From an uncultured Bacilli bacterium (GTDB taxonomy: Bacteria > Bacillota_I > Bacilli_A > RF39 > UBA660), in NCBI GenBank assembly GCA_934102335.1, contig CAKOSP010000001.1, positions 110,197 to 174,196 on the forward strand: a DNA stretch of 64,000 nt, read 5' to 3'. The notes under the pieces are model-generated. The model did not search any database, had not been told where the DNA came from, and worked only from the letters and a program-made list of their open reading frames with translations. Position numbers and translations under genes: made by a program. Of the stretch, positions 2,407-5,283 are shown piece by piece; position 1 is the first letter of the stretch; the number at the start of each line of letters is the position of its first letter.

Positions 2407-3201
2407 ATGGAAAGATTAGTTCTAGCAAATTATGACAAAATAAGATTAATTTTAAAAGAATATTTTAATTTTTTATCCAACTATTCAATAAGTAATAAAA
2501 AAAGTTTGGATTACGTTTTAAATATATTTGAAGCTTCAGATTTAACAAATAATTATCTAAATACAATTTTCTTTAACTCTACTTTAGAAAGTAATGGAAT
2601 ATATGATTACTATAATAAAAAAATAGAATTAAATCCTTATTATTTAGAAGGAAGCTTTAAATTGGGATATATATCTAAAGAAGAAATGATATTAGATTAT
2701 TTTATTCTTTTGATGCACGAAATTATTCATGTTTATCAAAAAATGTACATTGAAAATTTTAATACTGATAAGAGCAGAGTTTTAAAACTGAGTAATGAGT
2801 TAAAAATGAATTTACAAAATAAAATAAATTTCCAGTGTTTATTGCCAGAAGAGGTAAACGCTAATTTAATTTCTTCATTTTTAATTTATCAATTGAGTTC
2901 ACAAGAGTTAAATATTTGCTGTAAACATATTAGTGAAAAAATATTTATTTATTTTTTATCATTGGGTTTGTTCGATGAAGAAAATAATATTAATTCTCAA
3001 TTAAAATATTTATTTAAAGTTTTATTAAATAAAGAATATTTTGAGTATTTTCCAAACTTAAATGAAATTGATAAGGTAATTTATGGGTTAACTAAACAGA
3101 GTCAAACTATGGAATTTATTAAAACTAGTTATCAAACACAAAAATTGTGTTTTGATATAAATTTTGAAAGGAGGTTAAAAAATGAGAGACGAAATTTCTA
3201 G
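2407..3201 (+). CDS. Hypothetical protein with an HEXXH zinc-metallopeptidase-like motif (HEIIHVYQ; resembles the DUF4157 HExxHvvQ signature)
   Basis: 264-aa ORF with RBS aaaggaaaattATG. LLMHEIIHVYQK motif. No other recognisable family. Confidence 0.5.
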   Translation: MERLVLANYDKIRLILKEYFNFLSNYSISNKKSLDYVLNIFEASDLTNNYLNTIFFNSTLESNGIYDYYNKKIELNPYYLEGSFKLGYISKEEMILDYFILLMHEIIHVYQKMYIENFNTDKSRVLKLSNELKMNLQNKINFQCLLPEEVNANLISSFLIYQLSSQELNICCKHISEKIFIYFLSLGLFDEENNINSQLKYLFKVLLNKEYFEYFPNLNEIDKVIYGLTKQSQTMEFIKTSYQTQKLCFDINFERRLKNERRNF

Positions 3202-3571
3202 AAATAGTTATAGACAAGCTGGAAATTGGGACAACAGAATGCAGGTTGTTGTCGTTACGAAAGATGGAAATAGACATGTATTTAATTTTATAAATTATTT
3301 AGATTCTGCACATTCTCATATTGTATATGATAAAAATGGTAATAGAGTTTATACTAGAAATTTTGCGCACAATAGTGCTGCTAATTATGAACATGAATAT
3401 ATATCAGGAATTGCTGAATGGGAAAATGCATCAGTTGTTTCAAAATTCCCATATAATTTTGAACAAAGAAATGATTTTGTCTTAGATTCGTTAAGTAAAG
3501 AACAATTATATTCTTTGAAACAATATTTGGCCGAATTGTCTTCTACAATTATTTCTAAAAAAACCCGCTAA
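3182..3571 (+). CDS. Hypothetical small protein, translationally overlapped with the upstream HEXXH protein
   Basis: 129-aa ORF overlapping the upstream stop by 20 nt. RBS ggaggttaaaaaATG. No homology recognised. Confidence 0.5.
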   Translation: MRDEISRNSYRQAGNWDNRMQVVVVTKDGNRHVFNFINYLDSAHSHIVYDKNGNRVYTRNFAHNSAANYEHEYISGIAEWENASVVSKFPYNFEQRNDFVLDSLSKEQLYSLKQYLAELSSTIISKKTR

Positions 3572-3653
3572 AAAGTTTAATTTAATATTAAACTTTTTGC
3601 TTTTATGTTAATATATTTGTGTAATAATATATTTTTTTGAAAGGAGCATTTCA

Positions 3654-5039
3654 ATGACAATTCTTTTTATAGGGCGAAGTCAACTTATTGAAAATTACTT
3701 TATAAAAAAAATATCTGAAAAGCACAATATTTTGATTTTAGATATTATTACTAAAGCAGTTTCTCCCTCGTATGTAAAATCGCCTGTGATTAAAAGTAAT
3801 AAGTCCAATAATATTTTATATAAAAATAATTTTACATTAAAAAATATTAAAGAAATTATGGAAAAATATAATCCTAATTTCATAGTGTATGATATTAATA
3901 TAAATAAGACAAATTTAGTGCCATTTGTAAAGAAGAATGATGTATATGTAAAACAATATAAAATTTATAAAAATATTTTTGATATAATAAAAAAACATAA
4001 CGCAAATTGTAATGTTATTTTATTATCATCTTGTGATGTCTATGATATGATTCACAAAAAATGTATAAATGAAAGAGTAATTATAAAAAATAATTTGTTT
4101 AACTACATGAAAGATATAAAATATGTTGAAGACTTGTTTAACAAGTATACTTTTAACAAAATAATCTTAAGAATACCAATTGTTTTAGGAACTGATTTAG
4201 AAAACACATTTATTGAAAATAAAATATCAGAAGTTTTAAGTGGTAAAATTAATCCAGACATAAACGTTCCTTTTTATAATTTTATTAATGTTTCTTTTTT
4301 ATCAGAGGTTATAAATCAAGCAATACATTATTTACAAAAACATCAGAATGTTAATGAGATAATCAATGTTGTAAATAAAAAATCAACTAACAGAAATGTT
4401 TTCATAAAAAAATTAATTAGTGCATGTGGTTTTAAAGAAATATATAGAAAGCATCCTGAGGCCATATTAAAAGTTGATTCTACTAAGAGATATTCTTTTG
4501 ATTCAAAATATTACATCCATCATCCAAGATTATTAAGTTATCATAAACTTTATTTGCTTTTTGGATTAAAATCGAATATTAATTTAGATGATGATTTAGA
4601 AGAAACTTATGAGTGGTATTTAAAAACTCATTTAGTTTATCAAAAGTTGGATAATAATCTTAAAAATAAAATAAAATCTTTAAAAACGTCTGACCAATTT
4701 TCTAGTTTTATATTAAAATATAGAAATAATGAATTAACAAATTTGGAGATAGTAAATTATTTTTATAAATATATTAGTGAAAATATAAATTATAAAAATA
4801 TAGAAAAGAAATATAATAACGTTACTACTGAAGAAATTAAAATATTAATTACAGAAATAGAAAGTTATCTAAAATTATTTAAACGAAAAAAAATTAAATA
4901 TAGAATAAATGGAATTAGATATCAAATTGTGAGAAAAAATAAACCTAAAGGAATATTTGCAGGAGAATATATTTTAACTGAAAATAATAAAAAAGAGTTG
5001 TATAATGAATTAGAATATCTAAAGCATAAATTTCATTAA
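3654..5039 (+). CDS. Hypothetical protein with a degenerate Rossmann/NAD-epimerase-like N-terminus and a long K/N/Y-rich C-terminal extension
   Basis: RBS aaaggagcatttcaATG. ILFIGRSQLI and LSSCDVYD resemble GxxGxxG and S...YxxxK of SDR/epimerases but are degenerate. Confidence 0.45.
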   Translation: MTILFIGRSQLIENYFIKKISEKHNILILDIITKAVSPSYVKSPVIKSNKSNNILYKNNFTLKNIKEIMEKYNPNFIVYDININKTNLVPFVKKNDVYVKQYKIYKNIFDIIKKHNANCNVILLSSCDVYDMIHKKCINERVIIKNNLFNYMKDIKYVEDLFNKYTFNKIILRIPIVLGTDLENTFIENKISEVLSGKINPDINVPFYNFINVSFLSEVINQAIHYLQKHQNVNEIINVVNKKSTNRNVFIKKLISACGFKEIYRKHPEAILKVDSTKRYSFDSKYYIHHPRLLSYHKLYLLFGLKSNINLDDDLEETYEWYLKTHLVYQKLDNNLKNKIKSLKTSDQFSSFILKYRNNELTNLEIVNYFYKYISENINYKNIEKKYNNVTTEEIKILITEIESYLKLFKRKKIKYRINGIRYQIVRKNKPKGIFAGEYILTENNKKELYNELEYLKHKFH

Positions 5040-5088
5040 TATTTGTATGAAATTAATTGTTTTAGTCATACTAGTAATAGGTGAACTT

Positions 5089-5283
5089 ATGATAAATAGA
5101 AATGAGTATTTTTATAAAGGTTATGACATTGATTCAAATAGTAGAAAAGAAAAAAAAGAAATGGAATTATGTAATCCCTACGGATATAATTTTGAATCTA
5201 ATAGAAAAAGAGAAGTGGATTTATTAAAAGAACCAAAAACTAATCAAGATAACATTTATCCATTTAGGATTAAAGAAAAATAA
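5089..5283 (+). CDS. Small hypothetical protein (64 aa if it starts at the ATG at 5089; the ORF is open from 5047)
   Basis: RBS aggtga 4-5 nt before the ATG at 5089. Followed by the strong terminator at 5305-5343. Confidence 0.25.
   Translation: MINRNEYFYKGYDIDSNSRKEKKEMELCNPYGYNFESNRKREVDLLKEPKTNQDNIYPFRIKEK

Follow-up and report, generated by a model that had tools for sequence, protein, structure and literature searches.

Small soluble gluzincins such as selecase, jannalysin and abylysin, IrrE and ImmA of family M78, SprT, Spartan and Wss1, and CapP are the described proteins that come closest to the zincin-like protein considered here. In these enzymes the HEXXH motif lies on a long helix after a small three-stranded sheet and a glutamate follows on the next helix; some of them are paired with ImmR or DdrO or belong to operons of the cyclic-oligonucleotide-based anti-phage signalling system (CBASS). 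DUF4157, to which the initial annotation had assigned the protein, is a core marker of extracellular contractile injection systems (eCIS), a module of approximately 80 aa which usually stands at the N-terminus of large toxins or beside them; the eCIS loci concerned belong mainly to high-GC or environmental bacteria (PMC8213781). The present study deals with three adjacent genes on the forward strand of a 64,000-nucleotide stretch of DNA, hereafter the window, from an uncultured Bacilli bacterium (contig CAKOSP010000001.1, positions 110,197 to 174,196). Gene 1 (2407..3201) encodes the zincin-like protein of 264 aa, gene 2 (3182..3571) a partner protein of 129 aa and gene 3 (3654..5039) a protein of 461 aa; gene 2 overlaps gene 1 by exactly 20 nt. 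It was found that the three genes are real and conserved, that the HEXXH motif is invariant in its family and sits in a zincin fold, that zincin gene and partner gene form a tight pair in 10 lineages, and that gene 3 belongs to a decaying series of short-chain dehydrogenase/reductase (SDR) proteins. The zincin family and the two orphan components in their conserved arrangement are new here: no description was found in the libraries and papers searched, and the literature held none of the trio of zincin, partner and SDR.

The gene 1 protein carries LLMHEIIHVYQK at residues 101-112, with HEIIH (H104, E105, H108) encoded at nt 2716-2730. A putative third metal ligand, E149, lies inside PEEVNAN (nt 2845-2865); further downstream are Y226-G227 (nt 3079-3096) and, in a helix at the C-terminus, the motif SYQTQKL (nt 3127-3147). 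No significant Pfam, NCBIfam, PADLOC or PHROG model was obtained for the protein or for the other three ORFs of the locus. Word-indexed searches with the three proteins, against 5.8 billion proteins in the case of gene 1, returned 3, 1 and 1 clusters, those for gene 1 being the identical cluster and two relatives of 44% and 40% identity; the real partner and SDR homologues were missed. A HMMER profile search of 1.84 billion representatives gave 39 proteins of the zincin family, 26 of them at E <= 1e-10. These are 52-308 aa long (234-308 aa where full-length) and have a single matched stretch each. When 21 sequences were aligned, H104, E105, H108, E149 and G227 were invariant, and Q111, S156, L184 and Y226 were conserved in at least 90%. 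An AlphaFold2 model made with a 3-sequence alignment was unusable (predicted local distance difference test, pLDDT, 47); with the 21-sequence alignment used instead, pLDDT rose to 91.1 with a predicted template modelling score of 0.89. This model has a three-stranded sheet (residues 53-75), a long HEXXH helix (91-117) with H104, E105 and H108, a second long helix (147-167) which starts at the invariant E149, and flanking helical regions. It thus shows the mixed sheet and then the active-site helix of a zincin, and both the model and the 21 sequences show the HEXXH helix with a conserved glutamate on a later helix that defines a gluzincin.

Like the small soluble gluzincins, the gene 1 protein is soluble, cytoplasmic and single-domain, with its HEXXH on a long helix behind a small three-stranded sheet and its invariant glutamate on the next helix, 41 residues past the second histidine. 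It differs from them in that it falls outside every Pfam and NCBIfam peptidase family profile and has additional helices at both ends, a helical region at the N-terminus (residues 1-50) and a helical bundle at the C-terminus (170-244). It differs also from the ImmR/DdrO-paired and CBASS-operon gluzincins, being paired with an orphan protein with a His-Ser-His motif. The initial annotation of an HEXXH metallopeptidase-like protein is supported by motif and model. Taking alignment and model together, the protein is classed as a gluzincin-pattern metallopeptidase-like member of a new family without close relative, and peptidase activity is predicted for it.

Single members of the family gave weak matches, mostly to HExxH hydrolases: DUF6782 (E = 0.002; a literature search found no papers on it), Peptidase_Mx1 (E = 0.007), Peptidase_M91 (E = 0.04, one member), flagellinolysin, MXAN_6640 and LP_HExxH_w_tonB. 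The top PDB profile match was the light chain of botulinum neurotoxin C1 (E = 0.03, 53 residues around HELNHA), which brings the light-chain and NleD-type peptidases (M27/M91) into the comparison. The third ligand of M27 is also a glutamate, about 35-40 residues downstream. However, these scores are far below significance for membership, the similarity is confined to the active-site helix, and unlike M27/M91 proteins the gene 1 product lacks translocation and receptor domains as well as an effector context.

The assignment to DUF4157 did not survive closer comparison. PF13699 was matched neither by the window protein at E <= 1 nor by the 21 family members at E <= 10 (hmmscan). For a profile comparison, a consensus peptide was used to collect 94 plasmid records, many of them annotated 'DUF4157 domain-containing protein', and 8 diverse RefSeq proteins were aligned; hhalign of the zincin family against this alignment covered 19 columns, the HExxHxxQ helix alone, with 56% probability. 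The HExxHxxQ signature itself is present (HEIIHVYQ in the window, Q111 in 19 of the 21 sequences), as it is in DUF4157 (HELxHVVQQ, with HExxHxxQQ invariant there), but the motif alone is insufficient and so membership does not follow. Both families also have a downstream acidic motif of the form E-x-E-A-D/N (LEREAD in DUF4157, DEREAN or EEVNAN in the zincin family), and for this reason a distant zincin ancestry may be shared. Unlike DUF4157, the window protein is a stand-alone protein of 264 aa; no eCIS genes and no large toxin lie nearby, the neighbours thiI, ackA, nrnA, recX and prsA being without eCIS domains. The resemblance is thus one of motif only. Of what the initial annotation had named as counting against it, a non-significant DUF4157 match was indeed found; the three genes are also conserved in relatives, but with no function known for them. 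For annotation it is useful that the module is not a DUF4157 or eCIS-type toxin.

The second gene is preceded by a perfect Shine-Dalgarno (SD) sequence, gaAAGGAGGttaaaaaATG. Its homologues, 120-136 aa long, were recovered from the neighbour genes on contigs that carry gene 1 homologues, after the word-indexed search had missed them. A partner gene stands immediately 3' of the zincin gene in 10 lineages: the window and the loci L002, L001, L010, L013, L016, L017, L018, L034 and L035. In 10/10 of them an AGGAGG-type SD sequence lies 6-9 nt 5' of the partner ATG, within or just past the end of the zincin open reading frame (ORF), while the spacing of the two genes ranges between a gap of 18 nt and an overlap of 65 nt. 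The partner alignment comprised 8 lineages, with L034 and L035 compared in addition, and the residues invariant in the 8 sequences are M20, Q21, V33, N35, F36, H44, S45, H46, I47, Y49, F89, E94, L104, Q108 and L109. Conservation includes the motifs H44-S45-H46-I47-x-Y49 (nt 3308-3328, forward strand) and FPYNFEQ (nt 3446-3466, forward strand) and a conserved LSKEQL helix at the C-terminus. The stretch before the invariant Met-Gln is variable, about 19 aa in the window and 10-24 residues across lineages, and so is the middle segment. No Pfam or PDB match was obtained even at E <= 10. The small overlapping gene, which the initial annotation had proposed as a partner of unknown family, is thus a real and conserved one. 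The window and L002 share 54% identity in the partner against 42% in the zincin, and the window and L001 47% against 40%, so that the partner is conserved no less than the zincin. The zincin helix SYQTQKL is the most conserved stretch in the partner-bearing lineages and is absent from L019, L021 and L023, in which no partner was detected, and this hints that the helix could be a docking surface for the partner.

Two proteins elsewhere were considered as divergent partners and rejected. The 130-aa protein of L019 with an HDH motif and a 179-aa protein of L017 (9064-9603), near the module, whose GGHSHERW has a superficial likeness to the AHSHI of the partner, were both non-significant (hhalign probability 0.3% and 0.1% respectively, hmmsearch E = 19).

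Our favoured explanation is that of a cytoplasmic zincin with a cognate small partner, the latter acting as a regulator or latency factor or as a dedicated substrate, and with a pseudo-SDR that supplies a conserved C-terminal domain. We consider this a serious possibility, if not quite a probable one. Gene 1 would encode a soluble zinc metallopeptidase in which the metal is bound by H104, H108 and, from the next long helix, E149, and E105 serves as the catalytic base. Gene 2 would be translated from the SD sequence that lies within the last part of gene 1, and since this arrangement would bring both products to the same place at the same time, they may form a complex. If the partner regulates the protease or keeps it latent, the metal of the active site could be within reach of the invariant His-Ser-His; gene coupling and motif conservation are what suggest both the complex and this contact. 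If the partner is instead a dedicated substrate, the variable N-terminal stretch could be removed by the protease before the invariant Met-Gln.

The variable stretch before Met-Gln and the variable middle segment would also agree with a pathway like that of peptides made on ribosomes and modified after translation (RiPPs). The HEXXH protein would then be a non-hydrolytic metalloenzyme, for example an Fe/alpha-ketoglutarate HExxH oxygenase, or a leader peptidase, the 129-aa protein a precursor and the SDR-like protein a tailoring enzyme; an SDR enzyme is co-located, and its NAD motif is intact in some lineages. We regard this as quite improbable. The NCBIfam model for the alpha-ketoglutarate-dependent HExxH enzymes was matched by no member of the family, and the HExxH families among the matches listed at E <= 10 were weak zinc-hydrolase matches only. 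As is the pattern in gluzincins, the invariant third ligand is a glutamate on the helix that comes next, and no transporter, cyclase, radical SAM enzyme, YcaO or other RiPP enzyme lies nearby. Neither the family model nor the RiPP context of the alpha-ketoglutarate-dependent HExxH peptide hydroxylases (IPR026337) was therefore found. In addition, conservation of the partner is spread over the whole protein and is not divided into a leader and a hypervariable core, and the cofactor loop of the SDR is lost or deleted in most lineages.

The third gene brings another dimension to the zincin-partner pair. Its first part (3654..4610, forward strand) is a degenerate extended-SDR domain of the GalE/RmlB type, as seen from homology to the 434-aa epimerase-family protein of L013 and from profile matches, and its second part (4611..5039, forward strand; residues about 320-461) is a novel C-terminal domain conserved in 7 sequences. 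By itself the window protein gave a match to PF01370 of E = 0.046 (13.6 bits, against a cut-off of 20.9), but it matched the L013 protein at E = 2e-11 (BLASTP), which in turn matches PF01370 at E = 2.8e-20. The family profile aligns with GalE, RmlB and WbgU structures end to end over about its first 305 positions (E of about 1e-13 to 1e-9; 7.6e-14 for GalE/RmlB), so that Rossmann-fold homology extends over the full extended-SDR domain. The N-terminus described initially as degenerate and NAD-epimerase-like is thus confirmed as such. Unlike canonical extended SDRs, the window protein does not have the TGxxGxxG loop and the catalytic S...YxxxK: it reads IGRSQLI in place of GxxGxxG (nt 3669-3689) and Y-M-K-D-I-K in place of YxxxK (nt 4101-4121), while SS-x-x-VYD is kept (nt 4020-4046). 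The canonical lysine of YxxxK is present in 0/5 of the SDR-containing sequences, L013 and L018 included (alignment and comparison with 4zrm); three of the five keep the tyrosine in the form Y-x-K/R-x-I-K/R, and L002 and L017 have no tyrosine.

The glycine loop is intact (GGLGFIG) in L013 and L018 and degenerate in the window, L002 and L017 (IGRSQLI, VGSKNII or IGSESII). In L010 and L016 the third gene encodes 221-222 aa, consisting of the SDR tail and the C-terminal domain with the Rossmann part gone. Judged from these sequences the family forms a decay series from an intact loop through a degenerate one to deletion of the Rossmann part, and enzymatic function may have been lost stepwise while the C-terminal domain was retained. 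For this appended domain, about 140 aa long, neither PDB nor Pfam gave a match, and no relative of it is known. In 7 sequences Y322, L332, K337, K355, Y356, N363 and Y369 are invariant, and the motif KY-x-N-x-L-T-N-x-E-V-x-x-Y is encoded at nt 4716-4760. The K/N-rich tail noted initially does exist, but it is a conserved domain and not junk. A third gene of this family adjoins the pair in 7 lineages, though not always in the same arrangement (L013 has SDR, zincin, partner); the third genes of L001 and L019 are unrelated. Under the favoured explanation, gene 3 would be a former nucleotide-sugar epimerase- or dehydratase-type SDR which lost its NAD-binding glycine loop and canonical catalytic lysine in the window lineage and survives as a scaffold for the C-terminal domain, the part that would be functionally tied to the pair.

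In the Erysipelotrichaceae rumen metagenome-assembled genome (MAG) of L018 (2108-3829), the protein with SDR and C-terminal domain runs on into a histidine-triad (HIT) domain (HFHVHFIPR) to give 573 aa, which is either a real fusion or due to loss of a stop codon. In the window a HIT gene stands by itself at 10950-11333 (minus strand).

A bolder version of the favoured explanation joins all three proteins. The zincin, the His-Ser-His protein and the pseudo-SDR's C-terminal domain could constitute an undescribed three-component cytoplasmic system of reduced-genome, spore-forming gut Bacilli, in which a gluzincin of a new family would be gated by, or would mature, a new small metal-binding protein, and in which an ancestral NAD(P)-binding SDR would once have given redox or nucleotide-sugar input. 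We hold this extension to be doubtful. If it is true, the module would be a new pathway of regulated proteolysis or protein maturation, or a system of the toxin-antitoxin or defence kind without relative in current catalogues.

In an AT-rich genome it should also be asked whether such genes are decaying or spurious ORFs in which HEXXH arose by chance. The very low GC (20-29%), the lack of any database family and the lost enzymatic motifs of gene 3 in the window would fit this. However, full-length orthologues with 25-54% identity and invariant motif residues exist in more than 10 lineages, the AlphaFold2 model is confident, the SD sequences are conserved, and the identical gene 1 protein occurs on 9 independent metagenome contigs. 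Conservation contradicts the idea for genes 1-3, and its overall chance is practically negligible; it is possible only for the small ORF between gene 3 and ackA. This candidate (5089..5283, forward strand) encodes 64 aa, or 78 aa if the start is at 5047, and has an SD-like AGGTGA 4 nt 5' of the ATG at 5089; the 64-aa version is the call on Logan contigs, and the ORF was found solely on contigs of the same species. It was also examined as a truncated paralogue of the partner and rejected, the similarity in the FPYNFEQ segment being non-significant (E = 0.17, hhalign probability 5.7%).

The layout of the locus was found as initially annotated: the three genes and all other ORFs have the coordinates given for them, genes 1 and 2 overlap by the stated 20 nt, the LLMHEIIHVYQK motif and the hairpin of the last terminator lie where they had been placed, and so does the module between thiI and ackA (Pfam: ThiI E = 8e-66, acetate kinase E = 2e-149). 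Also in keeping with the initial description, none of the three genes is recognisable housekeeping, the library scans having given no significant family. Upstream are an IscS-like aminotransferase and ThiI, and downstream acetate kinase, a DHH/DHHA1 phosphoesterase and RecX (Pfam). A terminator-like hairpin with a U-run (2306..2352, forward strand; dG -17.1 kcal/mol, z -5.6, 0/200 shuffles as good) closes the iscS-thiI unit. Directly upstream of gene 1 stands a sigma-A-type promoter-like site, TTGACA-17-TAAGAT (2352..2380, forward strand), by consensus match alone (10/12), the best of the region on that strand; TTGAC(A/T)-17-TATAAT-like sites occur also 5' of the homologues in L016, L017, L010 and L023. 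An AT-rich hairpin followed by CUUUU (3567..3604, forward strand; dG -11.3 kcal/mol, z -3.8, 0/200 shuffles as good) lies 3' of the partner gene and is possibly a weak terminator or attenuator between the bicistron and gene 3. The strong terminator annotated after the small ORF is there as well, a hairpin with a 14-bp stem and U7 before ackA (5305..5345, forward strand; dG -13.4 kcal/mol, z -3.6). The hairpins and the promoter-like site together point to a zincin-partner bicistron followed by a second unit of gene 3 and the small ORF, into which transcription of the first may continue.

The -35 box of the promoter-like site falls inside a perfect palindrome with 6-bp arms, CTTGACaaataGTCAAG (window 2350-2366). 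Such an overlap would suit a regulatory protease of the ImmA/IrrE or SprT kind, an anti-repressor or a DNA-protein crosslink repair enzyme with its substrate elsewhere and neighbours that are merely co-inherited. The best structural neighbours of the predicted model include IrrE/PprI, CapP, Spartan, Wss1 and ArdC, and the E-x-x-A-N motif (EEVNAN or DEREAN) is one that we take to resemble the glutamate-helix motif of COG2856 proteins. Even so this is a slim prospect. The palindrome is not conserved, having no counterpart upstream of the homologues in the other loci compared; Pfam scans at E <= 10 list neither Peptidase_M78 nor SprT-like; and no helix-turn-helix (HTH) or XRE repressor gene adjoins the partner-bearing loci examined, save an unrelated divergent one in L017. 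Neither the profile of ImmA/IrrE (Peptidase_M78, COG2856) nor its pairing with an XRE/HTH repressor was thus observed, and the strict SD-coupled pairing in 10 lineages argues for a functional link between zincin and partner.

The named carriers of the module in the GTDB scan are three MAGs of uncultured bacteria, one of Bacilli from Hadza gut, one labelled 'Tenericutes' and one of Erysipelotrichaceae from rumen. The GC of all module loci is 16-30%. No relatives were present in IMG/VR, among INPHARED phages, PLSDB plasmids or JGI metagenome contigs, and tblastn against phages and plasmids gave no match for zincin or partner. On this sampling the module appears restricted to a few uncultured low-GC gut Bacilli and is chromosomal. 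GC content at third codon positions (GC3) is 0.14-0.17 in the module genes and 0.11-0.18 in their neighbours, and no transmembrane segment or signal peptide was detected in the three proteins; together with the sigma-A-like promoters and housekeeping neighbours, this makes the module look native and cytoplasmic. The neighbours differ per genome: thiI/ackA in the window, rpsT/spoIIP in L001, ftsEX/U32/greA in L013, tyrS in L017 and spoIVA in L034. Beside the module are spoIIP in L001 (11918-12835), the 3' end of spoIVA in L034 (3-104) and, in L016 (1183-2562), a 459-aa ORF judged GerA-like by sequence inspection alone. Sporulation genes beside the module in three genomes mark the hosts as spore-formers. 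A sporulation-specific role of the module was rejected, because the upstream sites are of sigma-A type and the neighbours vary by genome; the observation is a comment on host biology only.

Several observations weigh against a zincin with a cognate partner as the explanation. The chromosomal position of the module differs in every genome examined. The protease can do without the partner, since none was detectable in the divergent lineages L019, L021 and L023, and phylogeny confounds the correlation between the SYQTQKL helix and the partner. In L019 (3637-5827) an AAA_21 ATPase and RloB pair of the abortive-infection or OLD-like type stands immediately upstream of the divergent HEXXH homologue. 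The varying position and this neighbour leave room for an accessory or conflict role. In L019 the HEXXH homologue is followed by unrelated ORFs of 130 aa and 101 aa.

The varying position and the AAA_21 and RloB pair lend themselves to a toxin-immunity, toxin-antitoxin or defence module, in which the zincin would be toxic, the small protein would neutralise it and the SDR-like protein would be an accessory sensor. The tight bicistron with the small gene second, the tiny family with a phyletic distribution that may be patchy, a predicted fold resembling CapP, IrrE and VgrG2b-type effector zincins among many others, and a candidate conflict island 9 kb away in the window could be read in the same way. 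Balanced against this, positive evidence for the polymorphic-toxin or conflict setting proposed in the initial annotation was not obtained. PADLOC gave 0 families at E <= 1 for four ORFs and PHROG no match; no homologue occurs on phage, plasmid or IMG/VR contigs; and the proteins carry no signal peptide, transmembrane segment, trafficking domain or large multidomain carrier. GC3 is native, the upstream sites are sigma-A-like, the neighbours are housekeeping genes and not integrases or transposases, and the DUF4157 homology is unsupported. Immunity proteins as a rule diverge faster than their toxins, but this partner is conserved no less than the protease. L021 (4802-9267) has four tandem paralogues of the HEXXH family (308, 280, 295 and >230 aa) and no partner gene, with HEXXH intact in the two paralogues aligned (P0032 and P0027), and such tandem copies without a partner argue against a self-toxic protease. 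On balance a toxin or defence role is unlikely. The paralogues of L021 adjoin secreted proteins without assigned function on a contig of 18% GC.

If the zincin with its cognate partner and pseudo-SDR is the correct explanation, three new protein families, namely a gluzincin, a small protein with the His-Ser-His motif and a C-terminal domain on a decaying SDR, would be genetically linked in poorly known uncultured gut Bacilli. The enzyme of 264 aa and its partner of 129 aa would be a small experimental target for how minimal zincins are regulated, and the gene 3 family shows the passage from enzyme to pseudoenzyme scaffold in steps, namely intact, loop-degenerate and truncated. The module contradicts nothing in current understanding and bears on no long-standing open question.

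Some other features of the window deserve mention. About 9 kb downstream of the module, at 14535-23913, several unusual genes in a row resemble a mobile or conflict island. Among them are genes for a GT4 glycosyltransferase with a TCAD9/APH-like C-terminus fused to it (a weak GT4-conflict match), a guanylate-kinase-like protein, a protein that joins NUDIX and ATP-grasp, a UvrD-like helicase and a large serine recombinase. Amid the downstream housekeeping genes are a CapA/PGA_cap-family protein (9757-10953, minus strand) and a Sel1-repeat protein (12729-14018, plus strand). Further downstream a PGK RNA motif (61.7 bits, 27330-27420) precedes a 702-aa ORF at 27531-29639, and a T-box leader (97.9 bits, 30507-30674) lies upstream of an 842-aa ORF at 30711-33239.

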